From: Eledone cirrhosa
Lineage: Eukaryota
DNA: 64,000 bases
Assembly (NCBI GenBank): GCA_964016885.1
Contig: OZ024743.1
Span: 59,830,001 to 59,894,000, forward strand
Direction of reading: 5' to 3'
How positions within the stretch are numbered: position 1 is the stretch's first letter; each line of letters opens with the position of its first letter. Both the position numbers and the translations under genes were made by a program. Under the pieces are notes generated by a model. That model did no database searches, was not told the origin of the DNA, and was given only the letters and a program-made list of their open reading frames with translations. This document shows positions 12,516 to 64,000 of this stretch, piece after piece.

Positions 12516-12516
<1 letters not shown>

Positions 12517-19505: not shown

Positions 19506-19961
19506 GGTATATATACAATTATATATGCATATATAAATATAAACAAATATATACATATAACACACACACATACCCACACATAAATACGCATATGTTCAAC
19601 AAACGTACTTATACCAGTAAACATATGTAAACATATATATACATACATATATGTGTGTATATAAATAAATACAAACATATATATATACTCACACGGATAT
19701 ACATACATGCACCAACTCCAACTCATACGCATACGCAATAATAATCCATATATATAGATATATAGGAATATGTTCAAAACCCCGACGGCAGAGATAAAGC
19801 CGTTTCGACGGCTATTTCTGGACTAAAGAAATAGCCGTCGAAACGACTTGAGCTCTGCCGTCGTGGTCTTGAACATTTTCCTATTACCCACTGTAGTACC
19901 CTAAGTATTGAGTACTCTGGGGCGTTATGGTCCACCTGGTTCCTTACCACACTTCCTTCGT

Positions 19962-20060
<99 letters not shown>

Positions 20061-22611: not shown

Positions 22612-22727
22612 TGTTTCTACTTTAGGCACAAGGCCAGCAATTACCCAGTGCATTACTGGTACTTTATTTTATCGACCCTGTAAGGCTGAAAGGCAAAGTC
22701 AACCTCGGCAGGATTTGAACTCAGATC
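22612..22727 (-). mobile_element. 5'-truncated tRNA-derived SINE with 18-bp target-site duplication
   Basis: Box B-like GAGTTCAAATCC and central GCCTTTCAGCCTTACAGGGTCGATAAAATAAAGTACCAG. TSD AATCTAACATCAAATAAT at 22594-22611 and 22728-22745. Confidence 0.88.
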
Positions 22728-24469
22728 AATCTAACATCAAATAATGAAATTATTTCTAATTAACTGTTTACCGAAGAAAGTTTAAAGTTTGAATCTAGAA
22801 GAGTCAAATATTGAATTATTTGATACTGATTGACTTCGCTTTCGCTTCTCGTTCAATTTACTTATCAAAAGCAATTCTGTATGATAAATTACTGTTTATC
22901 TACAGAAATTACCTGCCCAATACAGACTAGAATGAAATATACTATTCAATGAATAGTTGTTGGTTTCATTTCATATTAATGTTTGACAGAGTTAAAAATA
23001 TTTCTTATGTAATGCTGTATGATCCACATATTTATTTACTTGTCCAACTAACATCCTCATATTATCCTGTCTTCCTGTACATATCAAACAGCTATTTTGT
23101 TATTTTTATAGTATTTCCCTGACCTATTCTCCTTGTTTCCGAATATCCATGTACTTGTTATATAGTAGAACCCCATCCACAACAACACCAGTTTAGTTTT
23201 CGATCAGTTCCCACTATGTTATTTTTATTTTCACTTTCTTTCTTCATTATCCATGGATTCTACTTCCTTTCTAATCTCATAATTTGAAAGAAAATATTTA
23301 TTTGTTCTGCTTATCTGACTTTCCCTCGTCTTTCACTGACTTTCCCTCGTCTTATCTCACTTTCCCTCGTCTATTACAGACGCCAACATTCATATCATTT
23401 AATAATTCATATTAAAACCATATATATAAAACTGGAATATTTTTACACAGCATTAACTGTATTTGTTTTCATTGGTTTTAGAAATAAATGAAGAAGCATT
23501 TGTACATTATGTACATTATAAAAGTGAAACTAGAGGAAACATAACATCAATGAATACGACACTTTATTGTTGATAGAAACATTTTCTCTCGGTGGTGAAG
23601 TAAATAGACTTTATAACATGGCCTCCTTGGATGAGTTACCTACAGCCTTGAAATAATACGTGAATAAATTATTATGAAAACTAAACATATCACTAGATTA
23701 AATGAATTGTAAGTTTGTATGATAATATTTTCCCTGAATAACTCTGGTGCATTTATATATTGTATTCAAAGGAGTCTTAATGGTCAAAACTAAATTCACA
23801 ACTCCATTTTGAGTATAAGCATATATCTATTTCAATATGTCTGCAGAAAACAATAAAAAATGCATTCACACGATTCATATATTTTCATTAGTCTTGTGTT
23901 CAGTGATTTTTTTCTAATCAGATTTTTTTCTAAGAACTCGTGATAGGAAAAGATGTTATTTAATCTATATGCAACAAAATAATAATTCAATAATCCATAA
24001 CACACGCTACAAGTTTTAAAAGTACAATCACAATTCCCATTGGAAACAAACACAAACACACTGCCACACTTATATGTAAGAGAGAGGGGAAGTGAGAGAA
24101 AGAGAGATGGTGGGTGAGTAGTGAAGGTTATCATAATCTTGTCGGAAAACAATGTTTATCGGCATCGGCTGAAAATGTGTCCGCAATGAAAAAGAAATAA
24201 TTAACATCAATACAATTTACTCTGAAAATGCGCATGGGGACAGAGATTTTGAAATCTTAATTAACAGAAAAGTGGGCAGGTTAATTTAAGCTAATAATTG
24301 TTTCTTCTTTTTTGTAAAGCTAATATTATTCAATAGAGAGGAACATTCACATGGTTCTCCTTTTTCTGCAAATAAACATTAGACTGTTCTTTTTCTAAAT
24401 ATACAAATTATCTCTTATCGAACGTATGTTATCGAGCGACTAACATGTGGGACAAAATCACAAACTCAA

Positions 24470-25111: not shown

Positions 25112-25303
25112 GGTGGTGGATCGGCAGTGTCGGTAGAGGGTCGGATGCTATGCTTTGACGCATAGAGTTACGGCCCTTGCCATTCAGATTTCAAATCCCG
25201 CCGAGGTAAACTTTGCCTTTCATCCTTATGGGGTGGATAAAATAAAGTACCAGTAACACACTAGGTATTTGCTGGCCTTGTGACAAAAGTAGAAACAATT
25301 ATT
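25111..25303 (+). mobile_element. tRNA-derived SINE following (TTA)n
   Basis: Box A-like CGGCAGTGTCGG, box B-like TTCAAATCCCG, the same central domain and an AGAAACAATTATT tail. Confidence 0.85.
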
Positions 25304-25976
25304 ACAGTTGCATTTATCTTGCTTTATGTTCATACGAGTTATCACCAAGTCACAACCAGTGACCTCAAGAAACAACAAGGTCCGCCATGTTCAAGAAAGA
25401 ACATACATACACACACATGCATATTTAGGTGTTTAGACTTGTGATGTACTTATATTGACAGAATCTTCTTTAGTATATGGGCAGTTCCCATTAGTACTAT
25501 CTTTTGTATTTATCCTATACGCGGGTTTCCTGGGATTTGCGATAAGTAATCATTAGACCCCTTAGGTATCATTCCTAGAGCGCCTACAACCACCGATATT
25601 GTTTTAGTTCTCAATTTCCACATTTTTCTAATTTCTATCTCCAGGTCCTTATACTTGCTCAATTTTTCAAATGTTTTTATAGATACATTCTTGTCTATTG
25701 GAACAGACATATCAATTAGCAGGCATACCCTCTTTTTAAAGTCCTTTAGTTTTATATCAGGTCTATTTGCATCTATTTTTCGGTCTGTTTGGATGCTAAA
25801 GTTCCACAAGATTGAGATGTGATCCTTTTCAAGTATAGGAGGTGGTTGATGCTCCCACCAATTCTTTTGATGGAGCAGGTCAAAATGCTTACACATTATC
25901 CAATGTATGTATTGTGCAGCTCTGTCATGCCATTTTAGGTGTTCGGTTGGAGCTATAGGACTGCACATTGAAATTG
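25304..25976 (-). mobile_element. R4/Dong-type non-LTR retrotransposon family 1, 3' fragment (RLE domain)
   Basis: HDRAAQYIHW, ILWNFSIQTD, NRPDI, IDMSVP, EKLSKYKDL, VVVGALG. 3' UTR shared with 28457-28600. Confidence 0.88.
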
Positions 25977-25985
25977 AACTGCACA

Positions 25986-26763
25986 TTGGCCTGGCAGTGC
26001 TACCGGGGAACGCTGCCGGTTCGAGATAAGCTCTACAGGCACGGAAGTGTTGTCAGCCGAGGCTGTCCGAGATGCGCTCAGAGCGACGAAACCGTCTTGC
26101 ACTCACTCGTTCAGTGCCCGAGCATTGCTGACTTGTGGAGCTATGTCGAACAGTTGCTGTCGTGTGTAGGACTGATCCGGTTGTCGACTGAGTCCATTTG
26201 CAGATGGTCTCGCCGTCTTCCTTCGAGGAGGAAGGGCAGGCGGTTTTCATCTGTCTGGTGGCCATGGCGAAAGAGATTGTGTGGTGGACAAGGTTAAAAG
26301 GGTTAAAGACAGACACTTTCCTCTTTGGCGAATCCCTAATTAACTTTTTCAAGTTTCACTTGAAGAGGAAAATCAGGGTGGAGAAGCAAGTGCTGCCTTC
26401 TAGCAAGTTTGTTGAACGGTGGGTGAATGTAGCGAGAATGGTCCGAATATACGTCTGTAGTTTGAGAGATGGAAACATTGAGAGAGGGCGCTTGCCCTGT
26501 GGGTCAGGGTGGCCGTGGTCTTTTGTGTGGCTTTCACCACGTGTAACACTCGGAGGTTTACCCCCTATGGGGGAATTTTTCATTGTTTCAATTTTCATTT
26601 TTATTGTTTATATCTATATATGTTTCTATGTCCTTTTTTTTCTTTTCTTATATAAATAATAAAAATATTTACACGCACAAAACCCACATCTTACCTTACT
26701 ATACCGTCGTGTGCCGTCTGTAATGTTTTTGCTGATGTCACCCCTTGTGGCCAATAAAGAAAT
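25986..26763 (+). mobile_element. Tx1-type LINE 3' fragment ending at (ATT)n
   Basis: LAWQCYRGTLPVRDKL..CPRC..ETVLHSLVQC zinc knuckle, homologous to 57641-58400 (-). Ends AATAAAGAAA + (TTA)n. Confidence 0.85.
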
Positions 26764-26771
26764 CATTATTA

Positions 26772-26818
<47 letters not shown>

Positions 26819-28431
26819 GTTTTTACTCTTTGAGTCTCAGTCATTGATGTTAGTTAACTGGAAAGTTTGTTGAAATGAATATGAAGCCACTACCTGCAGC
26901 CTCAGATATTCAGGACGTATCGGAGGGTTCTTGCTGTTCCCAGCAAGCATGCCTTTTGAAGCGTTCCAAAAAGCGTGAAGGGACCAATTTTCTTTAACCA
27001 TCCCTGGAAACTTTTTGAGATAGTCCCTAGTGCGCCTATGACAATCGGGATCACTTTGACATCATGGCAGTTCCAAATCCTTTTTACCTCCAATTTTAAG
27101 TCCTGGTATCGGTTAATTTTCTCCTTCTCCTTCTCTTGCATTCTCGTGTCGAATGGGCAGGCCACATCCACAATCTTTTTTCTTTGTCCAAAACCACCAG
27201 GTCAGGTCTATTGTATTCCAGTTTCTTGTTCGTCTGTATCCTAAAATCCCACAGCACCTTCACCTGATCGTTTTCCATCACCGCCTGGCTTATGCTAATA
27301 CCACTTTTCAGAATGTGGTAAATTGTTTACTTTGCATAGGTGCCAGTGGATCACCCTGCCCATCACATCATGTCTCCAGCCCTTATAGTGAGTCTGGGCT
27401 AGGTGTTTACACTCAGATACAATGTGAGCCACAGTCTCCTCTCTCTCTCCACAGATCCTGCACAGTGGGCTAGCCTCCCCCTTGTAAATGTGGTGTTTCA
27501 ACCACTTCGTTTTGAGGGCCTGCTCCTGCGCAGCCATTAATATTCCTTCTGTAGCCTTTTTAAGGTCTCCTCTTTTCAACCAGTTCCATGTCTGTGGATC
27601 TCTAAATTCAGTTTTCTCAAAGAAGGTACTATGAAGGGATTTTTCCTGAAGGCTGCTCTTTCTCCTTGATGTTATTTCCTCCTTGGACATCCCTTGGCCT
27701 ATTGTCTCCTCCTTCATTTCAGCTCTGAGCATTGGCTCCTTACTATCAGTCACGTATTTGTGTAGGTTGTTTTTCTCCATCTGAACACAGTCCTCTATGC
27801 TGATATACCTCTTCCACTCTAAGATCTCCTTAATAGAGTCTATCGACATCACTCCTCTGGTGGAATATATTGTAGATAGTCAATAGCTTCCTAGTCTTCC
27901 TATCCATTTCTTTTTGTTCAGCAACATTCCATCTCAGAATTCCCGCGCTGTACCTAATAATAGACACAGCTCTGGAATTTACTGCACTTATGGCATTCCT
28001 ACTTTTCAGATGTGACTTTAATACACTCCTTACTCTCCGAAGGTATTCAGTTCTTATCAATTCCTTCATTTTTTTGTTCTTGATGTCATCTGCCTCCAGA
28101 ACGCCCAAATACTTGTATCCTTCCTCAGAGTCAATTTCCTTGATCATCTCACCTGTTGGTATCTGGATTCCGTTACTTCTGCTCAGCTTACCCCACCTCA
28201 TCACAATGACTCCACACTTACTAATACCAAATTTCATACATATATCATTGCTGAAAATACGGACAGTGTCAACAAGCACATCCAACTCCTTCTCACTGTT
28301 CCTGAAGAGCATAAGATCGTCCATGAAGTGGAGGTGATTGATGGTAAGCCCTCCCTTTCCCAACCTGTATCCTGCTCTCATTTTTCGCAGTACACTGGTC
28401 AGGGACATCTGGGCAAGGGCAAACAACACCT
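26819..28431 (-). mobile_element. R4/Dong-type family 2, 5'-truncated (RT end, zinc knuckle, RLE)
   Basis: INHLHFMDDL, YKYLG, AAQEQAL, CRICGEREETVAHIVSEC, RHD, NRPDLV, DVACPFD, PIVIGALG. Flanked by (TAA)n on both sides. Confidence 0.9.
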
Positions 28432-28456
28432 TGTTATTATTATTATTATTATTATT

Positions 28457-31400
28457 ACAGTAGCATTTATCTTGCTTTATTTTCATACGAGTTATCACCA
28501 AGTCACAACCAGTGACCTTAAGAGACAACAAGGTCCGCCATGTTCAAGAAAGAACATACATACTCACACATGCATCTTTAGTGTTTAGACTTGTGATGGA
28601 CTTATTTTGACAGAATCTTCCTTAGTATATGGGCAGTTCCCATTAGTACTATCTTTTGTATTTATCCTATAAGCGGGTTACCTGGGATTTGCGATAAGTA
28701 ATCATTAGACCACTTAGGTATCATTCCCAGAGCGCCTACAACCACTGGTATTGTTTTAAGTCTCAATTTCCAAATTTTTCCAATTTCTATCTTAGATCCT
28801 TATACTTGCTCAATTTTTCAAATGTTTTTATAGATACATTCTTGTCTATTGGAACGGACATATCAGTTAGCAGGCATACCCTCTTTTTAAAGTCCTTCAA
28901 TATTATATCAGGTCTATTTGCATCTATTTTTCGATCTGTTTGGATGCTAAAGTTCCACAAGATTGAGATGTGATCTTTTTCAAGTAAGGGAGGTGGTTGA
29001 TGGTCCCACCAATTCTTTTGATGGGGCAGGTCAAAATGCTTACACATTATCCAATGTATGTATTGTGCAGCTCTGTCATGCCTGTTTAGGTATTCGGTTG
29101 GAGCTATAGGACTGCACATTGAAATTATATGGTCAATGGTCTCTGGTTGTTTTTTGTATACACGGGATAATGGGTTGCATCCATTTTTTATTATGTTGGC
29201 TTGGTAATTTTTTTGTTGGCAGACACTGATCTTGTGCTGATATAATCAGTCCTTCAGTCTCCGATTTCAGTCCAGAGGATGCCAATCACTGATGGGTTAA
29301 AGTTTTGTCAACATCAGGATTGTTAGCTCGTTCTGGGTATTTTCCATACAGAGGCTTTTCTTGCCATTTCTTAGCCAGTTTCTGTAGCAGTTCTTTCTTT
29401 GCAGTTACTTTTGCCTGCTTTGCTTTTTCTGTGTTTTCCATTTCAGCAGTAAATGGGACTTCTGAAATCTGTAGTCCATTACTGTATCTTTGTGCATCTT
29501 TTGTAATGGAATATGATCTTTTGATGCTTTCGTGTTTCAAAACGAGTTTGATCATCCAATCATGTGATTACCTTAGATATGTAGATCATCCAATTGTTGC
29601 AGTTTTCAACGCAATGTCTAACTGGATTAACCCACGTCCTCCTTCTTTTCTAGGGAGATATATTCTATCTGTATCTGCCTTAGGGTGAAGCATTCTGTGC
29701 ATGGTTAAGAATTTTCTAATTTTTGTATCGTGCGTAGGGATCTCTCTGCTTGACCAGTTAATGACATTGCAAATGTAGGTTACTACTGGTATGGCAAGCG
29801 TGTTTATGGCATCGATCCAATTCCTTGCATTCAATTCCGTTCTTAAGATTGCTCTTACTCTGCGGTAACATTCCTTCCTTATCCTTTCCCTCATTGTCGA
29901 GTGCTTGATACCGTCTCCTTCACAAACACCTAGATTTTTGTAAGTTTCCTCTTGGTCAAGTTCTCTTATCACACTCCCCCGATCAAGATTAATGTCTGAA
30001 CTTTTCAGCAGCTTTCCTCTGGTGAACGTTGCTTTGGCGCATTTATCTAGTCCAAACTCCATTTTAATGTCATCACTGAACTGCTCCACAGTGGATAATA
30101 GCCCTTGCAATTGTTCATCATTTTTTGCAAAAAGTTTCAGGTCATCCATGTAGAACAAGTGATTAATGGTTTTGTCATAGACTTTATATCCATGTTTTGT
30201 TTCATTGAGCATTTTACTTAATAGTATAAGTGCGATGCAGAATAAAAGCGGTGATAAAGAGTTACCCTGAAAAATTCCACAATTAATATTAACTTCTTCA
30301 GCTTCCAGTGATTTTGTGTCACTATTCAAAAGGAGTGTCGTTTTCCATGTCTTCATACTGAATAACAAAAACCTCCTAACAACGGGAGATATTTTGAAAA
30401 TCTCTAAACATTTTTCAATCCAACTGTGTGGCAAACTATCGAATGCTTTTTTATAATCTATCCAAGCAATTGATAGATTTTTGTGTCTATTATGACAATC
30501 TTCCAGTATCATTTTGTTAACCAAAAGCTGATCCTTACAGCCATATGAGCCTCGTTTACACCCTTTCTGCTCAATGGGAAATAGGTCATTTGTTACCAGG
30601 TGGTCATATGTATATTCAGTTAGGACTGATGTTAACATTTTATACATTGTCGTCAAGCAAGTTATCGGTCTGTAATTTTGGGGATTGTTTGTTTCATCAT
30701 TCTTCGGAAGCAGTAATGTAATGCCGTTAACTAGCCATGATGGTATCTTTTCTGGCTCCTTAACTATTTCATTGTAAAGTTGGGCTAACAGCTCATGTGA
30801 CTCATGTGACTGTTATATTTTCCCATGTTTGTTCCTCAAGGTGAGCTGTATCTTTCATTTGTCTGTCTCTCCATGGGGCATGTATGCTATGAACTTTTTC
30901 TTCAGTCCAGATCTTTTCCCAGAATTCTTGCACTTCCACCTTGGGTGGTATTGATTTAGCAGTTATTGTTGACTTACCAATTTTTCTGTAGAAGTTTCTT
31001 TGGTTGTTTTTGAACATATTATTGTCCTTATAGAATCTAGATCGTTTTTCAAAGCGCCTTATACGAGCAGCTTTGGCCGACACTTTTTGCTTGATTATTT
31101 CTATCAGCATGTCTATGTCACTTGTTGATTTTATACTGTACTTTCTTTTCAATTTTCTAAGTTTAGTTTGTTTAACATGTTCACCTACTTTATAGTTTGT
31201 TAAAATTTCTATGTCAGATCGGAGAAGGTTTATTTGGCGATTGATGTTCTCCTGCCAATTAGATTTCTTGTGGGAATTCCTTTGTTTTTCCATCTTCACT
31301 CTACATAAGTGAGTGGGGACTTTAGCAGATGCATAATAGAGATGATTTAAATCAGTAATGTTTAGTTTGTTTGTGATGATAATGTATGTGAGAATTATGT

Positions 31401-31540
31401 TAGTCTTGTGTATTATATTTTGGTTCTGTTTGGAGTTCTGGATCTTAGGGAGGGTGTCTCGTTGCCCCATGTCAGATTCTTTCATTTTCATCCATTCGAT
31501 CATAATTTCATCCTTCAAGTTGGCAAGTTCATTCTCATTC
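28457..31540 (-). mobile_element. R4/Dong-type family 1, long degenerate copy (N-terminal region, RT, RLE)
   Basis: ORFs 30802-31542, 29586-30656 (EQKGC, WIDYKKAFDSLPH, GIFQG, HLFYMDDLKL), 29286-29555 and 28787-29119. The 3' end abuts (TAA)n. Confidence 0.92.
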
Positions 31541-31548
31541 ATTTATGG

Positions 31549-32287
31549 ATTACAGAATGTGGTAAATTGTTTACTTTGCATAGGTGCCAGTGGATCACCC
31601 TGTCCATCACATCATGTCTCCAGCCTTTATAGTGAATCTGGGCTAGGTGTTTACACTCGGATACGATGTGAGCCACAGTCTCCTCTCTCTCTCCACAGAT
31701 CCTGCACAGTGGGCTAGCCTCCTCCTTGTAAATATGGTGTATCAACCACTTTGTTTTGAGGGTCTGCTCTTGCGCAGCCATTAGCATTCCTTCTGTAGCC
31801 TTTTTAAGGTCTCCTATTTTCAACCAGTTCCATGTCTGTGGATCTCTGAATTCAGTTTTCTCAAAGAAGGTACTATGAAGGGATTTTTCCTGAAGGCTGC
31901 TCTTTCTCCTCGTTGTTATTTCCTCCTTGGACATCCCCTGGTCTATTATCCTCTCCTTCAGTACAATTCTGAGCATTGGCTCCTTACTATCAGACACGTA
32001 TTTGTGTAGGTTGTTTTTCTCCTTCTGAACACAGTCCTCTATGCTGATAATACCTCTTCCACCTTCAGATCTCCTTAAGTAGAGTCTATCGACATCACTC
32101 CTCTTGTGGATCATGTTGTAGATTGTCTATAGCTTCCTAGTCTTCCTATCCATTTCTTTTTGTTCAGCAACATTCCATCTCAAAATTCCCGCACTGTACA
32201 TAATAATAGACACAACTCGGGAATTTATCGCACTTATGGCATCCCTACTGTTCAGATGTGACTTTAATACGCCTCTTACTCTCCGAA
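31549..32287 (-). mobile_element. R4/Dong-type family 2 internal fragment
   Basis: DVDRLYLRRSEGGRG..AAQEQ..CRICGE. Near-duplicate of 27305-28040. Confidence 0.88.
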
Positions 32288-33408
32288 TGTGATTGTAGCT
32301 TTGAATGGTGCTTTAGAAAATTATCGTTTTCTTAAAGCTGCAAGATCTTTTGTCCACAAAATTCGGTGTGAGCTAGAGAAAGAAGATGGAAGCGTATTAC
32401 CTATATCAAAATGTAAAAAACATTCTAAATGCTCTGATTCTATCAGGGCACCTGAAATTATTCAGGAAGTTAAAGCAAAACATTGATGACTATCCAAGAA
32501 AATCAATGAGGTCAACTGCAAAACAATCTTGATGTGTCAGAAAAACAATCAGAAATGTTGTGCCTGAAGACATCAGATACAAATGTTACGTGATGAGGAG
32601 AGGTCAATTCATGTCAAAAGAAACAACAGAAAACAGTTTAATCAGAACCAAAAGATTTTTGAACAAACTTAAAAATCGATCAGATGATGGTGCGATTTAG
32701 TTGTTCGCGGATGAGAAAGACTTTGACCAGGACCAGAAAACTAACAGAAGAAATGACAGATGGCTATATGCAGACTCTTCTGAGGTTCCAAGCACACACA
32801 ATTTCCTGCAAGTGCCATGGTTGCGGGTTTTGTTAGCAATGAAGGACAAATGATGCTTCCTCACTATTTTCTACAAGGCCTTAGGGTAAATGCCGCTGCG
32901 TATATTGAGGTTCTGTATAAAGTTGTAAAGCCTTGGATCAACAGTGTATTCAATGGAAAGTCCTATGTCTTTCAACAAGATTCTGCACCATCACACAAAG
33001 CTCAAATGACACAAGAATGGATGGCCGACAATTTGCACGATCACATCACCCCCAACATTTGGCCTCCTAATTGTCCAGAGCTTAATCCACTGGACTACTA
33101 TGTATGGAACATCGTTGAGAGAAATGTCAATGAATACCCCATAGCACCAAAGATTCTTTGAAAGCTACCATAGTTCGATTCATGTCCGATATGAACAAGG
33201 ACCACTTAATCCGAGCTTGTAAACGATTTCCACCCCGTGTAGAGGCAGTTATTGATGCTTATGGTGGTTTTACTGAATGAAATTATTAAATTGATAATTT
33301 AGCTTCATATTTATGTTAATTTTATGAGAATACAGTTTGTCTTCTGTTATTATATAAACGTTTTTTTTTTAAACCATAAATCAATCCTCAAATACCGTCC
33401 GCACTCTG
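32288..33408 (+). mobile_element. IS630-Tc1-mariner DD37D (maT-type) transposon, transposase pseudogene, left end lost
   Basis: FADEKDF and YVFQQDSAPSH...WPPNCPELNPLDYYVW, with 37 residues between the 2nd and 3rd Asp. Stops and frameshifts present. Probable right TIR ...CCGTCCGCACTCTG. Confidence 0.85.
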
Positions 33409-34178: not shown

Positions 34179-34460
34179 TGAATGGTTGGGATTCAGAAAT
34201 GTGTCGCGAGAAATATTCTAAGAAGCAACTATAGGAATGCACCTAACTAAAATGTATCTTCAATGTCACTTCGGCAGTGTATATATCACGGTATAACTAA
34301 CATTCCATAGCAATCGTTATATCACTAACAGTATTCATTTTATCAACCGCAGTAATTTAGAACTATAATGATAGCCAGAGAGTGTCGATTTTAAATTCAA
34401 AAATCACATCGATGATAATTGTTTAATAATAAAGGATTATATTAAACAACGAGAACAAAT

Positions 34461-35774
34461 ATGCCTATATTCGAAGTTTCTACAGAATTTAATATCCAAA
34501 ACGGATCAGGTTTCGATATGAATGAGAGTTCACAGGAGATTGAGGATACACCTACTATTTGGACGCCTGAAATCGTAGAAAGGATTACATCAGTGGTTTT
34601 CATTATGATCGCCACGATTGTGGGTAACCTAACTCTAATCGCAGCCATATTCTGGAAAAGGTCTCGTCTGGTGAAAAGAGTAAATATATTTCTTGTGAAC
34701 TTAGCTATTGGTGACCTGACAGTAGCGATGGTTACAATGACCACGGAAATTCTCTTCATTGCTTTCGGAGAATGGATATTGGGGGAAGTCGTTTGTAAGA
34801 TTTGCGTTTATCTGCAGATAGTAACACTGGCCAGTACAACATTTCTGATGACTGGTATGAGTATTGATCGCTACCAGGTCATCGTGAAGCCACTGCAGTC
34901 TCTGAGAAAACGTCCAAAAATTCGAACGAAAGTTATTCTAGCTTGGGTTATGGCTTTTATATTCGCAATTCCACAGCTCTTGATATTTGTTCAAGTAAAA
35001 GAAACAAAATCCGATGGAAGCACACAGATGAAATGTGTGAGTAGAGGTTATACAGGAGAATGGCAACGGAAAATTTACTTCACCTTCCTTACAGCATACA
35101 TTTTGATCATACCAGGTGCCGTGATGTTTTATTGTTACGCGAATATAACACGCGTTGTATGGAGCAGAGCGAACCATATGCCGCAGATAACATATAACAA
35201 CAAATCTGTTCAAACCACGAACCGTATTTCAATAAACCAGTCTCTTGTTTCGGCCTCCAAGCGCCGCGTGGTCACAATGACTTTGACGGTGATCATTGGT
35301 TTCCTCACATGTCTCACTCCATATTTCATAGTGAATCTCATTAGAATATACAGTAACTACACTATAGGTATGAAGAAAACACTACACGTTTCTGAAGCTA
35401 TCTTTATGACACATAGTGCTCTAAACCCGATACTTTACGGTATATTCTCATTACGAATGGAACATTTCTATAGACTGATTAACGTATGTTTATGCTTTAT
35501 ACCAGTGAGAAGCGTCATTGAAAGAGACACAAGCGTAGACAGTTTAGGTCACATGAATACATTAAGTATGTTACAGCTGAGGTTTGCTCGACTAGGAAAC
35601 AGAAACGCTGTGCAAAGTATTAATCAAAAGAAACAATCGTTCCAAAGGAAAAGTTTTCTGCGAAAGAATGTAGGCCATGCCATAAAGACAACCTTTCATC
35701 CCAAGTCGAATTCAGTACAAACAACTATAGAGAACACGAACATGCGGCCTGCAAGTGGGCTATCAAATGTATAG
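34461..35774 (+). CDS. Class A (rhodopsin-like) neuropeptide GPCR of the vasopressin/CCAP-NPS/GnRH/achatin receptor superfamily, 437 aa
   Basis: Seven hydrophobic segments with GN (TM1), NLAIGDL (TM2), W..G...CK, SIDRY, AW....F.IPQ, CLTPYF (TM6) and HSALNPILY (TM7). N-glycosylation sequons NGS and NES. Uninterrupted ORF. Confidence 0.95.
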
Positions 35775-38316: not shown

Positions 38317-38553
38317 AATTGTTTCTACATTTGGCACAAGGCCAGCAATTACCCAGTACATTACTGGTACTTTATTTTATCGACCCCTTAAGGATGAAAG
38401 GCATAGTTAACCTCGGCGGGATTTAATAATAATAGATGTAATAATAATAACAACAACAATAATAATAATGATAATAGTTTCTACTTTAGGCACAAGGCCA
38501 GCAATTACCCATTATATTACTTGTACATTATTCTATCGACCCCGTAAGGATGA
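38317..38553 (-). mobile_element. Two 5'-truncated tRNA-derived SINE copies in (AAT)n
   Basis: GTTTCTAC.TT.GGCACAAGGCCAGCAATTACCC... at 38317-38424 and 38473-38553. Confidence 0.85.
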
Positions 38554-40475: not shown

Positions 40476-40484
40476 TCTATCTAA

Positions 40485-40885
40485 ATAATTGTTCTGCATT
40501 TGGCACAAGGCCCGCAATTACCCAGTGCATTACTGGTACTTTATTTTATCGACCCCGTAAGTTAACCTCGGCGGGATTTTAATTCAGAATGGCAAGGGCC
40601 GTAACTCTATGCGTCAAAGAATGGCCTCCGACCATCTATCGGTACGGCCAATCCACAGCCATCAAAATGATGGTTTCTTATATAGGCACAAGGCCAGAAA
40701 TTTGGAGAGAGTGGAAAGTCGATTAAATCGATCTCAGCACCTGCCTGGTACTTTATTTTATCGACACCTTAAGGATGAAAGGCAAAGTTAACCTCGGCGG
40801 GATTTAAACTCAGATCATAAAGGGCCGCAACTCTATACTGCAAAGCATGGCACCCGGTTCTCTACCCATACTGCTAATCCACCGC
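40485..40885 (-). mobile_element. Two tandem tRNA-derived SINE copies
   Basis: Same family with box A/B and central domain. Confidence 0.85.
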
Positions 40886-41413: not shown

Positions 41414-42620
41414 CTAGTGCGACCGGTGGAAATTCCCCCGAACGAAAAACAATTAAAAGGAGCTATTTAAGAAAGAACGGATCATCTGCGTTTTTAAATT
41501 ATATATATGTTATTGTTGCTTGTGCAATAACTGATACAAGAATATACAGTGACAATTTATACAACACTTAATATATATAGCATTCGTTAGATTTAATTGT
41601 ATTGAAACTGCAAGATCAATATATAATTGCATATTCTTTATTACGCAATATTTTATCAGGATTAGTTTACATAATATACAATTATTTTAAACAAAACCTT
41701 ATAGAGAATATGCAGAATATTTACATTCACCTGATTAGTGTCAATTCCTTTACAAATTACAACGCATTTACTATGCTCAGATATATCTTAATATCTCATT
41801 GCATGCGATATTTCTTTATTAGAGGTTTATTAGCTTGCCACCTTTGCATATCAGTGTTGAATACATTAATTTTTACATTTGGCTGTCTGTGTTCTCTTGA
41901 GACAGCTACATATAATTGTCCATGGCTGAATACTGGCTGAGGAAGGAACATACCCACTTTATCATATGTTTGAACCTGGCTCTTGTTGAAAGTCATAGAA
42001 TACGACAGTCTTAATGGAAACTGGTTACCTTCCAAAGTAAAAGGGAAGCTGGGATCTCTGGGGACTAACTTTAGTCTTGGGATCAAAATACGTCGGCCCA
42101 TCAAAGGACACTTGATATGAGAAGCATCGATGGAATGTTGATGCAATCCCATTACTTCCAATCTTGTACCGTTGTATAAGCCGTTCTGCATTGAAATATT
42201 CCGTAGAAGCATTAGTATTAATCCTGCTTTTAACTGGAGTTAGCGAGGCGGCATCACCGAAGGGGTGAATGAGTTTAGAAATTCAGTAGAATATCTGTCA
42301 GCTTCTGAAGGGTCATCCGTAATCACTCTATCAGTATTATGATAAGTATGGCTGTTACCACGTAGTTGTCTGAGAACCTATTCGTTGGTAAATAAGCAAT
42401 CAGCATTATTTGGAGATAAAATTACTCGTGTTCTTTTCTGATGTTGCGTTGTATCGTTGAAAGTTTGTTTCATCAAAAAATAATTTACACATGAGAATCG
42501 AGTCACCTCAACATCATCTTCATTAATATTTAGTTCTTCAATTTGTGATGTTGGTTCATTGCCAAGATGTAGTAGCCTTTAGGTACGCAACTGGTCGGTA
42601 ATTTGCAGCCTCATTTCCCT
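41414..42620 (-). mobile_element. Helitron 3' fragment (Pif1-like helicase pseudogene + terminal hairpin/CTAG)
   Basis: MLLRN..GLYNGTRL, IPRL, QFPLRLSYSMTFNKSQ, VFSHGQLYVAVSR. The minus-strand end reads CGGGGGAATTTCCACCG (hairpin) then CTAG (41414-41417). Confidence 0.88.
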
Positions 42621-42907: not shown

Positions 42908-43123
42908 GGGGTGCGGTGGATTGGCAGTATCGCTAGAGCATCGAACACCATGCTTCGCAGCTACGTCCTTTTACCTTCTAAGTTCAAATATCGCCAAGGT
43001 TAGATTCGTCTATCATCGTTACGGGGTCGATAAAATAAAGCTCCAGTAAGGCATTGGCATCGATTTAATCGACCTTTCCTCTCCTCCAAAATTGCTGGCC
43101 TGATGCTTAAAAAAAACATTATT
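42908..43123 (+). mobile_element. tRNA-derived SINE
   Basis: TGGCAGTATCG, AGTTCAAAT, CGGGGTCGATAAAATAAAG. Confidence 0.8.
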
Positions 43124-43139
43124 ATGAGCAGACTGTATT

Positions 43140-54900: not shown

Positions 54901-54945
54901 GCCATTGCTAGATCAGAGGTCTAATAATTATTTTATGCTAACTAA

Positions 54946-55757
54946 TGAATTGGCAGTATCGGTAGAGGGTCGGACACCATGCTTTCCAGCATAGTTACGT
55001 CCCTTTACGGTCTGAGTTCAAATCCCGTCGAGGTTAACTTTGCCTTTCATCCTTATGGGGTCGATAACATAAAGTACCAGTAATGTACTGGATAATTGCT
55101 GGCCTTGTGCCAAAAAGTAGAAACAATTATTTTATTTTGTGGATTGGCAGTATCAGTAGAGGGTCCGATGCCATGCTTTGACGCATAGAATTACGGTCCT
55201 TGCCATTCTGAGTTCAAATCACGCCGAGGTTAACTTTTCCTTTCATCCTTATGGGGTCGATAAAATAAAATACCAGTCACGCACTGGGGTCGATTTAATC
55301 GACTTTCCCCGCCCCCGAAATTACTGGCATTGTGCCTATATAAGAAACCATTATTTTCTAGGTGAATTAAAGGGTGGTGGATTGGCAGTATCGTTAGAGG
55401 GTCGCACGCCATGGTTTGCAGCATGGAGTTACGGGCCTTTACGATCTGAGTTCAAATCCCGCCGAGGTTAAATTTTCCTTTCCTCCTTACGGGATCGATA
55501 GAATCAAGTACCAGTAATGCACTGGGATGATTGCTGGCCTTATGCCAAAAGTAGAAACAATTATTTTCTAGGTAAATTGGCAGTATCGGTAGAGGGTCGA
55601 ACGCCATGCTTTCCAGCATAGTTATGTCCCTTTACGGTCTGAGTTCAAATCCCGTCGAGGTTAGATTTGCCTTTCATCCTTACCGGGTCGATAAAATAAA
55701 GTACCAGTAATGCACTGCGTAATTGCTGGCCTTGTACCAAAAGTAGAAACAATTATT
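54946..55757 (+). mobile_element. Head-to-tail array of four tRNA-derived SINEs
   Basis: Four ~190-bp units, each with TGGCAGTATC (box A), GAGTTCAAATC (box B), TTTC.TCCTTA.GGG.TCGATA and an AGAAAC.ATTATT tail. Confidence 0.92.
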
Positions 55758-56243
55758 TTCTATTTCTACTAAAACCCTCTGATGACAGGACTTTCTACCG
55801 TCATCAGAGTTTTGTCTTAATTTTTTGAGATCTACCCTTCCCTGTCTTATGTCGCCTAATAATCCTTGCACTTGCCCTCCTTTTCCTCTCATTTACAACA
55901 CTTAGAGTCCCTTGCAATGCTACTAACTTTCTCTACATGTTAGTCTAAATAATACATTCTTTATTATTTTTATGCAATTTTATCCTAGAAATATGTTTGT
56001 TTATCTTGAAATAAAAATGATTATCGAGTAAAAAAGAAAGAAAGAAAATTAACATTCTAACTGAAGTTACAAACATGATGCAAGCGAAATACTCTTATGT
56101 TCTTCTTTATGGAGAATTTGGCATAAGTGCTGCTAATGGTACCACCACCAGTAATATATTTATATATCTGTGTGTGTCTGTGAATGTGTGTGAGTGTATT
56201 TGTGTGTATATGTGTGTGTCTGTATGTGTGTACGTATATGAGC

Positions 56244-56275: not shown

Positions 56276-56570
56276 CTGTGTGGGTATATGTGTGTGTGTG
56301 TGTGTGGGTGTGCGTGTATGTGCGTGTGTGTGTATGAACAAGTCTACTTGAAATCTGCAGCTTTTGAAGATTTTAAATTGGAAATTATAGGCACCACAAC
56401 GCAGCTAGCTATATTAAATATTCTAAAAGCTAGTGAATTAAGACCGAAATCAGATGAGGAGATGGAAACGCATTTCTATAGGTATTTCAGTAGGCTTCAC
56501 AGCAATAGCAGTTAAAATCATTGTACGAACTATATTTTCATATAGGTATATGTATATATATATATATATA

Positions 56571-56995
56571 TCGGAAAAGAGTCAGGACACCGACGGCAGA
56601 GCTTAAGACGTTTCGACGGCTGTTTTTGGACAGAAATATCCGGCGAAACGGCTTGAGGTCTGCTGTCGGGTTCCTGACTGTTTTCCTATTACCCACTCTA
56701 CTACCCAAGGTATCGAGTACTCTGGAGCATTATGGTCTACCTGGTTCCATACCACACTTCCTTCATTATCTAGCTCCCACCTCCGTAGTGGAGCACTTTT
56801 CAACCCTCCCACGCCATATCCACGACTTTTCCACCAAGCTCCAGTTTCTTCTAACTAAGGTCCAGATATAGCCGCCGCAGCGGCTTGAGCTCTGCCGTCG
56901 GAGTCCTGACTATTTTCCTATTACCCACTCTACTACCCAAAGTATCGAGTACTCTGGTGCGTTATGGTGCACCTAATTCCTTACTACACTTCCTT

Positions 56996-56998
<3 letters not shown>
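56571..56998 (+). mobile_element. Family H tandem copy: inverted arm + R + U + R (232-bp period)
   Basis: Hairpin copy 56571-56767, unique spacer 56768-56857, and a second non-hairpin copy 56858-56998. ACCCACTC occurs at 56691 and 56923. Confidence 0.82.
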
Positions 56999-57039
<41 letters not shown>

Positions 57040-57068
57040 TATGAAGAGAGAATGTATCTGTGTGTTTC

Positions 57069-57168
<100 letters not shown>

Positions 57169-57226
57169 GCGAGAGAGAGACAGAGAGAGAGAGAGAAAGA
57201 AAGAGAGCAAGAGAGATAATAATAAT

Positions 57227-57602
57227 TGTTTATACTTTTGGCAGCAATCTCCCAGTACATTACTGGTACTTTATTTTATTAACCTCGTAAGGATGAAAGG
57301 CAAAGTTAACCTCAGCGGGATTTTAACTCATACCACAAAGGGCCGTAACTCTTTGCTGCAAAGCATGGCGTCCGACCCTACCGATACTGCCAATTCACCA
57401 CCACAGAGATAATAATAATAATAATAATTGTTTCTATTTTTGGCACAAGGCCAGCAATTACCCAGTACATTACTGGTGCTTTATTTTATCGACCCCGTAA
57501 GGATGAAAGGCAAAGTTAACCCCGGCGGGATTTGAACTCGGACCGTAAAGGGACGTAACTATGCTGGAAAGCATGGCGTCCGACTCTCTACTGATACTGC
57601 CA
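57227..57602 (-). mobile_element. Two tRNA-derived SINE copies in (AAT)n
   Basis: 57227-57404 (TSD AGAGATAATAATAAT) and 57426-57602. Confidence 0.88.
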
Positions 57603-57640
57603 AAATAATAATAATAATAATAATAACAATAATAATAATA

Positions 57641-60600
57641 CTTTCTTTATTAACCACAAGGGTTTACATAAAGTAGACATTAAGGACAGTGCAGGACAAT
57701 ACAGGACGGTACAAATGGGCATTTCTGCGTGTAAAAAACAAAAACATAGGATGTAACAAAAAACATAACAATGAAAAATTCCCCAATAGTGGGGAGACTT
57801 CGGAGGGTCATTTGTGGAGAAAGCCCATTAAAAAGGCCACAGGGACCCTGACCACGAAGGCAAGTGCCCTCTCCCAGTTTTTCACCTTTAATTTACAGAC
57901 ACATACTCAGAGCAGGCCCATTCACTAGGGCCATTCTTGCATCTCTCACCCATCTTTCAACAAAATGCTGGGAAGGGAGCACTTCCTTCTCTACTCTGAT
58001 TTTCCTTTTCAAATGAAATTTGAAAAAGTCAATCAGGGCTTCACCGAATAGGTAAGTGCTCGTCTTCAGCCTTTTCAAACGTGTACACCATGCTATCTCT
58101 TTCGCCATGGCCTGCAGACAGATAAAAACTGCCTGCCCTTCTCGGCTAAAGGAAGAGGGTGGGGCACTCCTCACGATGAAGTCAGCTGATAGCTGGATCC
58201 TTCCTACACGCGACAGCAGGTGTTCGATATAAACCCACGAGTCAGCTTTGCTCGGGCACTGGACGAGTGTGTGCAGGACGGTTTCGTCGCCCTGCGCGCA
58301 TCTCGGACATGCCCGGCTGACGGCACCTCCATGCCTGTAGAGTTTATCCCGAACTGGAAAAGCTCCTCGGTTGCACTGCCAGGCCAGCGATTTCTTGAAG
58401 TTGTCCATAGGCCCCGGCCCGAAAGTTCTTCCGAAGAGATTGGCGAGTTGATTTTCGTCGACGCCTAGAGTTTCCCCAAGTACGTCGTCGCTCTTCCCCT
58501 CCATTAATCCTCTGTAGAACGCCAAGGTGGAGTTTCCACCGATCACATTGCCCGATTGGTCGATGGCTGTGAGCGCCTGAAGACATTCCAGTCTCCAAGC
58601 CCTCCCTCTCCTTTTTCGATTGACCCAGGTCTGCAGCTCCGTCAAGGAGACGAGCTGGGGAAAGACGTGTCTAGCAAACGGCGACCACACCTGATCACCG
58701 TCGAGGAAGAGGTGGAGATGTCGTAGCCTGAGCGCGTGTCTGCGCATCATCAGCCACGGCATTCCCAGCCCTCCATGTAGCGGGTGTTGACAGCAGATGG
58801 AGCGCCTTACCATCGGTGCGCGTGCCTTCCACAAAAAGGCAAAAGAGCAAAAGCTCCAGCGCAGTCAGGCTGGGCTTAGGACAAGGTACGACGGTCAGGC
58901 GGTAGTAGATGACGGACGCCATATACGCGTTAGCCACCTCCGCTCGACATTTCAGGGATAGCTTCCTGTTGGCCCATATCTGGGTGAGAGAAGCCACTCT
59001 GCTCATCATCTCGTCCCAGTTTTTGTCCGTCTTGAGGTCCGGACCGAACCAGACCCCGAGAAATTTAACCAGTCCGTCCGTCCAGCGCCCGACGACGCTG
59101 TTGGACGGCATGGACCTGCCTCTCCGGGTGCCAAGCTGCAAGCCCACTGACTTTTCCTGGTTGATCATTGCTCCTGTCACCGCTTCGTATTCTCTTAGTG
59201 TAGTGCCGATCGCCTCCATGTGTTTGGCGTTCGACATCACTACGGTGAATTCGTCCGCATATGCTGACACGGATCTTCCGCATCCTAGTTCACGCGGGAG
59301 CCCCTTCAAAGTCTCCAGTTTGTGCAGAAATGGCTCGAGAGTCAATACGTACAAGAGGGACGAGAGGGGACATCCTTAGTTGACCGAGCGCATGATGTTG
59401 AACGGTTCCGAAAGGTGACCGTTCACTCTCACCACAGAGCAGATGTCACTGTGCATGGCAGCGATCCAGCCTCTGAAGACGGGCCCAAAGCCAGCCGCCC
59501 TCAGGACTGCCGCTAGGTAACGATGGTCGACCCTATCGAAAGCTTTCGACTGATCTAAATTGATCAAGGACCCACCCGTGCCAGGTTCCCTAGCTACCCT
59601 CTCTACGATGTATCGCATGAGGTGGAGGTTGTCGTGGATGGATATGTCGGGAATGGCGCATGTCTGCACCTCACCCACCGGACCACTAACGACAAGCGCC
59701 AACCTCTTTCGTAGCACCTTGGCCAAAGTCTTGAACTCTGTGTTTAGCAGAGTTATGGGCCTAAAATTATCTATGTTATCCCCCTTGTTCGGATCCTTTC
59801 TCAGCAGCGCCACAGCTCCTCGGCTCACAGAGCTGGGAATTCTCCCGTTCTGTTGCCAGTTGCAGTAGACGTCCGCCAAGAGGCCTCCGAACAAGTCTGG
59901 CATCTGTACGTAAAGTTCTTAGGGCAGACCATCCATACCAGGCGATTTACCCCTTGTGCAGCCAGTCATTACCTACCGTACTTCAGCGGTTATCGGCTTT
60001 TCGAAACACTCCGCCTCAGTGGCCGAGAGCCGCGGCAGTCCGTCGAGGTAGACACTAGAGTCCATCCCTCGATCCGGCCCGCCGCTGCTCCCGAACAGCT
60101 GAGCAAAGTGTCACTGAAAAGCTTCACATATTTGCCCGGGATCGAGTAGCATGCGCCCGTCGTGAGCCACCAAAGACCGGATCTTGGCTTTGTTGCCACG
60201 CCGCGTCTCCGCCACTCGGGGCCATTGAACGGCTTTCGTCCCCTCGTGTATGGGAACACGCAACCTAGCTCTGACAACGCAGCCTTCGTGCTTTGCATTG
60301 AAGAATTGGTCAAGGGCCAATTTCGCCGCAAGTACGTCGATCGCGATGCCTTTCTAAGCGCCTCGTCTAATTTTCTAACTAATTCTCCCACTGCTCTATT
60401 TTTCTCTATTGCTAAAGCCTTACTAAACCTAATGGACTCTATTCTAATTGCTCTTTTCAGAGCAAACCACCACTTGTTTTTGACGATGGCCCCCGTCAAC
60501 GCCCGCTTAACTAGTTCGCTAATCCGGTCTCTGTAGGCCTTGCGCGCTGGTAAGGACGCGTTTAGCTTCCAGTAGCCGGGTCGTCGTCTATGAAGCCTAT

Positions 60601-63159
60601 CTATGTCAAGCACACAGATCACGAATTTGTGGTCCGTGTAGCTGACTATCTTGAATTGTTGACAGCCTATGCTAGATCTATCCATTTCCCTACAAAATAC
60701 CGATGCGGTTTCTCCAAGTCCATATTCGCACATTCGGGAAATCCATTCGGTACCTGTTAGACAGTTCAAAACGCAGGAGCAGGTTGGTGAGGCTCTTGCA
60801 CATTCCTCCCCTATCCGCTAATCCCACACAGTCCCCGCGTGCAACTAAGATCCCGTTCCAGTCGCCCACTAACACTAAAGAGCTGGACGTTCCAAGAAAG
60901 GTCTCCAGACGCCGGAAGAAATCAGGCAGCCCTGCTCCTATCGGGGCATAGACGGCCACTAGCCTGAAAGCTTGCCCGTCTACGCTGGTCACGTCTAACA
61001 ACACTAACTTACCTTCTGGGTCCAGGAAGATGGCTCGTATAGCGAGACCCAAACCTCTCCGAAAAAGCACAGCAACTCTTCCCCCCGTTCCCGGACGGCT
61101 GGGAGATGCGTACACATCGTAGCCGCCGAAGATCGGTTCGAAGGCCCGTGCTTCACAGTTTCTGGTCTCGCTGATGGCCAATACATCTATGTTTAGTGAC
61201 CTGAGGTCGTCGAGCAGGTGGCCCTGCTTCCATGACGACCCCAAGCCACGCGCATTTATGCTGCCTATTCTGAGTGAGGTCATGTTGAAATGGAGTGGAA
61301 AAGATGGGAAAGACCACTTACCTTACTTCTTGTAGAGGAAGGATGGTTTCTCCATCCTTTTCACTGCTTGTGGCCTCCTGAGCAAGGATGTCCTTATAAA
61401 TCCTCCCGGGTTAATGATGGTGATGGTATTGGTGTTTGTGATGATGGGGTTGGTGATGCTGGTGTGGATGGTGGCATAGCTGTCCTATCTTTTTTGTCTG
61501 ATAGTTTATTTATTAACCTCTGTATTTTGTTTTTGGAGGGGGACGGAAAAGGAATGTTTCTTGTTTAGCTTCTTTTTCTTTTTTTTCTTTTTTCCTGAAA
61601 CCGTTTCCCACTCCACGTCGTCTCAATTGCTCTCCAGTTGCGATAGGTCGGGGATTGTTGTGGCGTGGAGTCGGCTGTAGGCGCTGGTGCTAGTTCTGCG
61701 CGTTGAGGGTGGTGGAGGTGTTGGTTTTGTTACTGTTGCTGGGGTTGTTGCTGCTACAGTTGCTTCTGTTGGTGCTGCTACAGTTGTTGCTGCCATTTCT
61801 GCTGCTGGTGGTGTTGATGGTTGAGTCATTGGGTGGGTTAAACAGGTGACCTCAACTTTTTAGCCTGAGGGCAGAAAGCCCTTAGGTGTGTTCCTTCACC
61901 ACAAACGACACACCTAGGCCTTCTACCCTCGACGATTACGTTGAGGTGGCTGCCGTCATGAGGTCTATTACCTCTGGGATCTCCTCAATGCTTTTCTGGT
62001 CCGCTTGGATCAGGAGCTCCAACCCAGATCCGGACCAGTTCCCCTGCTTTTCTTTTGGTATTTCGATTAGTTTGGTGTTGGCATCGATGCCGGCGAGGAC
62101 GGCAGCCATTAGCCAGTGAATTTCGATGGCCGATGGAACGTGGGTGACCCTGATCTTTACGAGTCTCTGGTCACAATAGCTTGGGACGACTGTCACGTCA
62201 TCGCTTATTAGTGGGGCCATGGAGTGCTCTCTGGCCTCCTGTGGTGTTCCAAAGAACACGTCCACGGTTCCATATTTCTGTCCACGTTCGATGTTGGATT
62301 TTTTTGCCCACACATGACCAAAAGCTTTTTTGGATTTGGGACTTGGATGCCCGTTCCACTCGGCGCGATTTTATGTTAATCGTCCGATAAAACACGGTGC
62401 ATAGGCGCCTATGCTCTATTTTATTATGTGGCGCCGGGGTGGGGGTGGGGGTGACCTTGTACCCATCTTTCTTTTCCATTCTCTTAGCTTCATCTAATTC
62501 CTCCTGAGTTTCCCAGATTGTTTCGCATATTTTGGCTCCTTTGGCAACAAGGTGTTCTTATCCGCATTGTTGTTGTTGCTGTTGTTGTTATTGTTATTTT
62601 TGTTATTGTTATTTTTAGTTTCAGTTGCGGTGGTAGTGGCGTCAGTGGTGTTCGGTGTGGCTGTGTCGATTTTGGGTGAATCCATTTCGATGTCACAAGA
62701 TATTAATTTTTTTTTTCTTATGTTTCTGTTATCGCTGTGGTGATGGCGGGGGTGGCGGCTTCAACACCTGCAGTCATTGGTAATTGCGGGAAATAAATGT
62801 CTGCATGAGACAAATTTAAATTATTGCTACTGCTTATATTTTTAGTGTTGGCAAACGTAGTAATATTTACAATGGTGGTGTTGGTGTGAGGTGTTAGTTT
62901 GTGAGGAAGGCTCTCAGCTACTTGGTGTAGCTGTGAGTCGTCCATGATTTGTTCAAAGAAATGTTTTGTTTGATAATTATAAAAGTTTAAATTTTGGGCT
63001 CAAAGCCCCAATATTTTTGAGTGTCCTTTTCAGAAATCAATGTATGTGCACCTAGAAACAATTAACAACAAAATTCTTCCATAAATGGTAATTTTAAACA
63101 AATGAAAACATCAAACCTTTGCTGAGTTCACGATGATACGATTTCCTAGATAGGTCGGC

Positions 63160-63160
<1 letters not shown>
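57641..63160 (-). mobile_element. Full-length but decayed Tx1-type (L1 group) LINE flanked by (AAT)n on both sides
   Basis: ORF1 remnants ~62945-61300 and ORF2 from 61283. The 3' end reads GTGGTTAATAAAGAAA. (AAT)n lies at 57603-57640 and 63161-63200. Confidence 0.9.
57893..61283 (-). pseudogene. Tx1-type ORF2 (APE-RT-zinc knuckle), multiply frameshifted
   Basis: SINARGL, LAISET, GDWN, YTDH, FRPITLLN, LDQSKAFDRVDH, AYADE, CPRC..ETVLH..VQC. Confidence 0.9.
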
Positions 63161-63200
<40 letters not shown>

Positions 63201-63202
<2 letters not shown>

Positions 63203-64000
63203 TTTTCTTTATTAACCACAAGGGTTCACATAAAGTAGACATTAAGGACAGTACAGGACAATACAGGAGGGTACAAATGGGCATTTCTGCGTGTAAAAGA
63301 ACAGAGGTTGAAATAAAATGACAAAGAAAAAAAAAAAAAAAAAAAAAAAAAAAATTCCCCAATAGGGGGGAGACTTCCAAGGGACATTTGTGGAGAAAGC
63401 CCATTAAAAGACCACAGTGGCCCTGACCACCAGGGCAAGTGCCCTCTCCCAGTTTTCCACCTTTAATTTACAGACACATACTCAGAGAAGGCCCATTCAT
63501 TCGGGCCATACTTGCTTCTCTCACCCATCTTTCAACAAAATGCTGGGAAGAGAGCACTTCCCTCTCTACCCTGATTTTCCTTTTCAAATGAAATTTGAAA
63601 AAGTTAATCAGGGCATCACCGAAGAGGTAAGTGCTCGTCTTCAGCCCTTTCAAACGTGTGCACCATACTATCTCTTTCGCCATGGCCACCAGACAGATAA
63701 AAACTGCCTGCCCTTCCAGGCTAAAGGAAGGGGGCGGGGCAATCCTCACGATGGACTCAGCTGATAGCCGGATCCGTCCTACACGTGACAGCAGGTGTTC
63801 GACATAAACCCACAAGTCAGCAATGCTCGGACACTGGACGAGTGCGTGCAGGACGGTTTCGTCGCCCTGCGCGCATCTCGGACAAGCCCGGCTGACGGCA
63901 CCTCCATGCCTGTAGAGTTTATCCCGAACTGGCAAAGCTCCTCGGTAGCACTGCCAGGCCAGGGATTTCTGGAAGTTGTCCATAGGCCCCGGCCCGAAAG
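63201..64000 (-). mobile_element. 3' end of a second, tandem Tx1-type LINE (continues beyond window)
   Basis: ORF 63468-63983 and 3' UTR are homologous to 57641-58420. Confidence 0.9.

Follow-up and report, generated by a model that had tools for sequence, protein, structure and literature searches.

A rare dimer of a short, high-copy hairpin repeat in TA microsatellites of Eledone cirrhosa, and its likeness to Penelope-like elements

Penelope-like elements (PLEs) are described as inserting in the form of partial tandems with an adjacent inverted 5′-truncated copy and a tail at one end, with (TA)n among their targets (PMC8557442, Craig et al. 2021). Arrangements of two direct pLTRs and one adjacent inverted pLTR have been reported together with palindromic junctions, which were ascribed to self-priming, and host spacers captured between pLTRs are also on record (PMC3846280, Arkhipova et al. 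2013). Regarding the copying reaction, the account in PMC11167929 has the PLE reverse transcriptase (RT) starting internally at two sites that bound the tail, with both strands being primed, and gives an unprocessed multi-copy RNA as the template, for which hammerhead cleavage is not needed. The (TA)n-targeting Naiad and Hydra families of PLEs are recorded for Octopus (PMC8557442), and PLEs are stated to make up 6.83% of the O. vulgaris genome, which also contains many unclassified SINE families (PMC13282606). Non-LTR retrozymes, which are derived from the pLTRs of PLEs, carry a type I hammerhead in tandem units (PMC7229834, Cervera and de la Pena 2020; 10.64898/2026.07.22.740005, Li et al.).

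The locus described here is a dimer, a rare form of a short hairpin repeat that is abundant in TA microsatellites. It belongs to a repeat designated family H and lies in a window of 64,000 nt, this being the whole stretch of E. cirrhosa DNA that was analyzed. The left (TA)n target microsatellite, identified from the sequence, covers 56553-56571 and is followed by a 60-nt inverted arm on the minus strand (56572-56631), which repeats, as reverse complement, the ~60 nt with which the repeat unit R begins, an inverted, 5′-truncated pLTR-like copy, and whose outer end falls at a TA of R. The upstream direct copy R1 (56632-56768, plus strand) is pLTR-like and pairs with the arm as a hairpin. It is followed by a spacer U of 91 nt (56769-56859, plus strand) and by the armless downstream direct copy R2 (56860-56999, plus strand), the last ~78 nt of which (56922-56999) form a tail that is missing from the arm; the right (TA)n target microsatellite occupies 57000-57168. 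The initial annotation had recognized a spacer and then a second copy without the inverted arm behind the hairpin copy, and this order was confirmed, as was the 232-nt period, which appears as a direct repeat of 85% identity with a start-to-start distance of 232 nt (BLAST E 5e-42). R1 and R2 are equal at 116 of 136 aligned positions (85.3%), and the arm matches R2 at 51 of 62 positions (82% alike) and R1 at 46 of 58. The fold of the whole locus has a z of -7.6, and the sole ORF of at least 120 aa over it is a mere stop-to-stop frame that extends outward from the TA repeat. R contains GAAA, a helix III of 5-6 bp with a palindromic loop, and GUC, which we take to be the 3′ half of a hammerhead; in R1 this motif lies at 56644-56667 on the plus strand, where it is not preceded by a 5′ core. 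We infer that the plus strand is probably the sense strand of family H.

Four other loci of family H are found in the window, each composed of an arm and a single R: solo hairpins at 1228-1414 (minus), 12515-12700 (minus) and 19764-19963 (plus), and a copy with an apex deletion at 1706-1827 (plus), which is cut at 1828 by a LINE fragment. The inverted arm is present at all five loci and the R1-U-R2 tandem at one of the five, and (TA)n stands at the start of all five and at the end of four, at the same terminus, the fifth being the LINE-cut copy. The density of five loci per 64 kb corresponds to about 2e5 in a 2.8-Gb genome, and family H likely comprises roughly 1e5 copies, most of them solo head-to-head hairpins. 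Relative to the other window copies, R1 and R2 have 10 variant columns in common, whereas 8 columns are private to R1 and 10 to R2; of the shared variants, the six that fall within the span of the arm are all present in it. The shared variants at 56939 and 56946 belong to the minority in the family as a whole, with about 7% and 24% of the depth in the contigs of one run. However, only four of the 10 columns set R1 and R2 apart from every other copy in the window, and the identity of R1 and R2 (85.3%) hardly exceeds that of R1 and the 19764 copy (84.7%); the evidence for a common origin of R1 and R2 thus stays at the subfamily level. Since the variants are shared and both outer ends lie at the usual family termini, one insertion from a template with two R units would be the simplest reading of the locus. 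This copy is old, with a divergence of about 8% per unit, and under the octopus rate given in PMC13282606 the divergence of R1 and R2 would amount, as a rough figure, to ~23 million years.

The arm finds its best match in the R of its own locus at three of the five loci, the other two being a same-subfamily pair and a deleted arm, and the apex joints vary among window copies and contigs. Frequent renewal of the arm from R is therefore probable, although apex variation could also stem from later repair at the tip of the palindrome. The earlier suggestion that the hairpin arm is not part of the template fits these data, in that U precedes R2, arms co-vary with their own R and the apex varies; the arm would presumably not be templated as such. 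At the apex (window position 56860), two 9-letter inserts found in contigs each start and finish with TA, and one of them is similar to the apex at 19764-19963; certain apex forms thus turn up at more than one locus.

The PLE link drawn in the initial annotation agrees with the published PLE architecture. Four features of non-autonomous PLEs are present in family H, namely partial tandem pLTRs, an inverted 5′-truncated copy, a one-sided tail and a preference for (TA)n. EN+ PLEs such as Pen2a_Av, and the insert mobilized by Pen3a, share with the locus the direct terminal repeats, the adjacent inverted 5′-truncated copy, the palindromic junction, the tail at one end and the (TA)n target, the last as in the Naiad and Hydra clades. 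Family H differs from these elements in that it has no ORF, only 91 nt between the repeats, a predominance of solo head-to-head hairpins, a tail of 78 nt instead of the usual published 30-40 nt, no complete hammerhead and no parent element found. As for the pLTR hammerhead, it is absent or partial in Naiads, and family H has the 3′ half only. MRC1 of Chlamydomonas, a non-autonomous PLE, resembles family H in being non-coding, with pLTRs, head-to-tail insertions and membership in a microsatellite-targeting clade; elements of the MRC1 type are described as sharing their 3′ ends with known autonomous families (PMC8557442). A further difference is that family H is dominated by hairpin monomers. 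A search of the supplement of that paper with five short motifs gave no hit to an autonomous PLE sharing R, in a text whose line breaks could hide hits, and R bears no resemblance by eye to the listed 3′ ends of Naiad_Obim and Naiad_Ovul. The lack of a partner sharing R, the 78-nt tail, the lack of a canonical hammerhead and an R1/R2 identity near that of unrelated copies speak against the PLE reading. The window itself contains a decayed PLE-like element at 4471-5900 (minus), with an RT fragment followed by a GIY-YIG-like fragment, and a second PLE-like fragment at 20433-21171. The RT and GIY-YIG-like calls at 4471-5900 rest on motifs that we presume to be diagnostic, and Pfam gave no match for either PLE-like fragment. 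The homologues of the 4471-5900 element are mostly unnamed proteins of up to about 700-800 aa, and it possibly belongs to the Hydra clade; a homologue search with the endonuclease-like fragment found nothing, and BLAST found no link between R and the PLE fragment of the window.

The nature of the spacer U bears on how the two direct copies are related. Contigs of three sequencing runs (one sample of one study, possibly of a related species), which contain 0.31, 0.10 and 0.09 of 71 query words, were aligned to 56572-56998 at 80% likeness, yielding about 9,400-10,100 aligned contig records per run. No RNA run is among those listed as containing such words, which carries no information on expression. 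Over the arm and R the summed depth is 1e4-2.6e6, which agrees in order with the window density, summed contig depths being distinct from copy numbers. It falls to 89-223 over 56782-56811 and to 11-37 over 56812-56856, at a cut-off of 80% that would miss diverged spacers of other subfamilies; U is thus covered about 1,300-49,000 times less than the adjacent R bins, and its 5′ end 10-15 times better than its 3′ end. Across the 5′ boundary of R the depth goes from about 5e4 down to 11-23, and the drop from the 5′ bins of R to the 3′ bin of U is about 25,000-49,000-fold. Therefore, the earlier designation of 232 nt as the monomer of the family was not borne out: compared with R, U is scarce, no other listed locus shows the 50 nt at its 3′ end, and a 232-nt family monomer rests on this one locus. 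The anatomy of the locus, the abundance of the family, the rarity of U and the linkage of its 5′ part to R elsewhere are direct readings of window and contigs.

This linkage comes from a paralogous contig, one of 24 listed pieces (29,406 in total), which aligns without gaps to 56702-56806 with 21 mismatches in 105 positions. It is too diverged to be an allele of this locus. Within U it matches at least 17 of 38 positions even if R is allowed zero mismatches (P 0.005-0.02); when 8 of the mismatches are assigned to R, the matches in U rise to at least 25 of 38 (P < 2e-6). As the first ~38 nt of U (56769-56806, summed depth 89-223) follow R at this paralogous locus among the contigs listed, U is not plain flanking DNA, and the condition under which the initial annotation would have given up its reading, a spacer never associated with other family H copies, does not apply to this part of U. 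The 3′ part (56807-56859) is different: its ~50 nt are represented by 1-4 variant contigs per run, each at a depth of about 9-20, which may be the orthologous locus. Among the contigs listed, none joins U to a downstream R and none spans the whole locus, a gap that is no evidence in itself, and the apex inserts of other loci, among those listed, do not match the 3′ end of U. A joint leading from 56970 back to 56630, with unaligned letters in between, occurs in all three runs (27 joints in total) and points to a further tandem with a spacer that finds no alignment with the present U. Loose ends of contigs lie in TA at 56921, among those listed (802 loose ends in all). The possibility that U is a decayed arm or R was rejected (p 0.05-1.0 in all 16 comparisons).

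From these observations, two separate family H insertions, or a local DNA duplication, around 91 nt of unrelated host DNA would be a very unlikely origin of the locus. It would account for the single occurrence of U in the window, where the best local score for a further copy is 28 and 20 shuffled versions of U reach 26-41, for the near single-locus depth of its 3′ 50 nt and for the R1/R2 identity near that of unrelated copies, and captured host spacers between pLTRs are described in PMC3846280. However, a contig at 80% identity passes without a gap from R into U as far as the 38th nucleotide of the spacer, R2 has neither an arm nor (TA)n on its 5′ side, and R1, R2 and the arm have subfamily variants in common.

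We regard it as probable that family H is a non-coding parasite of PLEs and that the locus arose as a partial-tandem insertion of this non-autonomous PLE, for which a borrowed PLE reverse transcriptase/endonuclease would have used linear RNA as the template. The enzymology throughout, as well as the polarity and the linearity of the RNA, is deduced from the architecture. The PLE endonuclease would nick (TA)n, and cDNA synthesis would then be primed at the 3′ end of R, the usual start, and would stop at a fixed 5′ boundary of the RNA corresponding to the apex. At this boundary an inverted copy of the first 60 nt of R would be added, either by fold-back self-priming or by priming of the other strand from a further start that lies 78 nt upstream, and the outcome would be the common solo hairpin. 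In rare cases, a second unit in the template would lead to the arm-R-U-R structure, through read-through from a tandem source or through a jump to a second RNA extending 91 nt past the usual start. U is then best read as the continuation of the template downstream of R, instead of the missing arc of a family-wide circle.

The earlier proposal that RT ran more than once round a circular or multimeric RNA is retained in part. The shared variants agree with a template containing more than one R, and the multimeric alternative is the ordinary case for PLEs, while a circular template conflicts with the direction of the gradient along U and with the sharp 5′ boundary of R. A circle predicts that the 3′ side of U is better represented, with scattered stops, because the cDNA would enter U from its 3′ side. 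Circular read-through is disfavored since the coverage gradient of U, which decay of this U copy could bias, runs opposite to that prediction. The constant position of the 5′ boundary would be expected of a linear RNA that has a fixed 5′ end or contains a strong stop, U being a rarely used extension downstream of R.

As an alternative to copying from linear RNA, family H could be a descendant of a non-LTR retrozyme, in which a 232-nt hammerhead circle was copied 1.6 times by the PLE RT, which would usually abandon it in helix II; we consider this unlikely. The period of 232 is within the retrozyme range (220-240 bp in coral, PMC7229834), and family H has in common with metazoan non-LTR retrozymes its lack of coding capacity, a likely derivation from PLEs, a hammerhead-like 3′ half, here with a palindromic loop, and, as far as one locus of 1.6 units shows, a short tandem unit whose length falls within 150-450 bp. 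Another repeat of the same window, family E, has a full core and one copy truncated inside loop II, and the core of the present locus may have decayed, as the locus is old (about 8% per unit). A candidate decayed 5′ core with two mismatches lies at 56851-56857, about 19 nt ahead of GAAA, and is not significant, being one of 18 such sites in 430 nt. The relaxed form of the 3′-half motif arose in 160 of 3000 shuffles and the exact CGAAAC..GTC form, a pattern picked after it had been seen, in 2 of 3000. However, exact CTGANGA is absent from both strands of all five family H loci in the window, among which only one copy of U, an old one, is readable; a scan of the same type picked up full cores in family E and at 6223. 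Rfam gave no hits at the gathering score in the window and no hammerhead for family H up to E 10, and its 24 sub-threshold hits at the locus are mostly (TA)n or miRNA models and include no ribozyme. The circular fold of the 232-mer is unremarkable because its MFE is no better than that of shuffles (z -0.79 on the plus strand and -0.61 on the minus strand against 100 shuffles, in a decayed copy); the linear fold has a z of -1.56. The consensus fold of the five R copies has no covariation support (two-sided changes at 3 of 33 pairs, covariation term +2.16). The 3′ end of U is the least covered part and the 5′ boundary of R is sharp, whereas a circle has no end, and the contigs listed offer neither a U joined to a downstream R nor an apex insert matching the 3′ end of U. 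Family H also departs from non-LTR retrozymes in lacking a complete type I hammerhead and a compact circular fold, in having 1.6 units at one locus instead of arrays, and in its inverted arm, the word "inverted" occurring zero times in the main text of PMC7229834. Retrozyme membership, as assigned by the initial annotation, is thus not upheld, since the complete hammerhead is missing from this decayed copy; nothing found points to a circular ribozyme RNA, and the retrozyme circle is unsupported. A combination of the two views, equally doubtful, sees in family H a PLE parasite reduced to one terminal repeat of 140 nt, which would have rebuilt its head-to-head palindrome at each of about 1e5 insertions into octopus TA microsatellites, and whose rare sources would be 232-nt hammerhead units circulating as RNA circles on which RT usually stops in helix II. 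If this were true, the family would represent a cephalopod retrozyme with ribozyme-less hairpin progeny.

A relationship to PLEs has also been weighed against the reading that family H is a tRNA-derived SINE, a MITE or a rolling-circle DNA element, with a hairpin that moves as a component of the element. Its very high copy number, its fixed ends and the recurrence of one apex form in the 19764 copy and in contigs would suit such an element. MITEs are recognized by terminal inverted repeats and Helitrons by 5′ TC and 3′ CTRR ends. Reading by eye, however, found neither terminal inverted repeats nor Helitron-type ends in family H, and the arms co-vary with their own R, the best match being at the own locus in three of five cases, with a same-subfamily pair and a deleted arm as the rest. 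ARAGORN found 0 tRNA genes, and a match to the B-box pattern occurs in one variant family H copy only, at 25 hits in the window against 19 expected. This reading is accordingly most improbable. The candidate identity as a tRNA-derived SINE was rejected, as there is no tRNA-like head with A and B boxes. Exact-motif scans gave 0 loci in metagenome contigs and 0 in viral contigs. Among the papers listed by literature searches none describes family H; the O. vulgaris repeat library of PMC13282606 may already include it.

How PLEs build their tandem and inverted structures and how they pick microsatellites are named as unresolved in PMC8557442. The single locus by itself shows ordinary PLE architecture. 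Family H as a whole, in which roughly 1e5 copies combine fixed ends with variable apex joints and occasional dimers, offers an extensive natural data set and a 140-nt candidate template, by which priming through fold-back, priming of both strands, jumps between templates and circular templates could be distinguished. If its assignment to PLEs holds, it would reclassify part of the "SINE/unknown" repeat fraction of octopuses.

Several other elements of the window were noted. Family E (17771-18911) consists of a 658-nt tandem unit with direct copies that are 97% identical, one of them truncated inside loop II. Its motif at 18119-18052 (minus) has a complete type I core, a helix I of 7 bp, a helix II of 3 bp with a loop of ~40 nt and a palindromic helix III of 4 bp, in the format listed for Hydra-clade PLEs (PMC8557442). 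Rfam did not detect the hammerhead of family E and returned 4 chance hits. Family E is a better retrozyme or mini-PLE candidate than family H. The two had been described as having the same architecture, inverted arm and R-U-R; this is correct only loosely, since the inverted copy of family E covers the R/U junction and not the 5′ end of R, and since family E forms no hairpin and has the complete hammerhead core that family H does not have. A second full hammerhead-like core is present at 6223-6270 (plus), with an AT-rich helix I of 8 bp, a helix II of 2 bp and a palindromic helix III, in a repeat also found at 320-468. A short palindrome at 55775-55812 contains an exact hammerhead 5′ core on the minus strand with no valid helix II. 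An abundant repeat of ~190-210 bp, often in tandem beside (AAT)n, contains a B-box match time and again and has the appearance of a tRNA-derived SINE in short arrays; it is found at 54923-55762, 57221-57603, 40483-40885, 42913-43127, 25112-25304, 22599-22728 and 38320-38553. LINE fragments with RT and endonuclease domains, together with a DDE_3 transposase fragment and a Pif1 helicase fragment, occupy 7332-11639 (minus), 1828-2985 (plus), 25305-32290, 57779-64000, 32784-33161 and 41796-42239, and the LINE fragments include a 98% identical pair, one member of which cuts the family H copy mentioned above. Finally, a single-frame GPCR at 34446-35774 (plus) is 86% identical to a "neuropeptide S receptor-like" protein of Argonauta hians.
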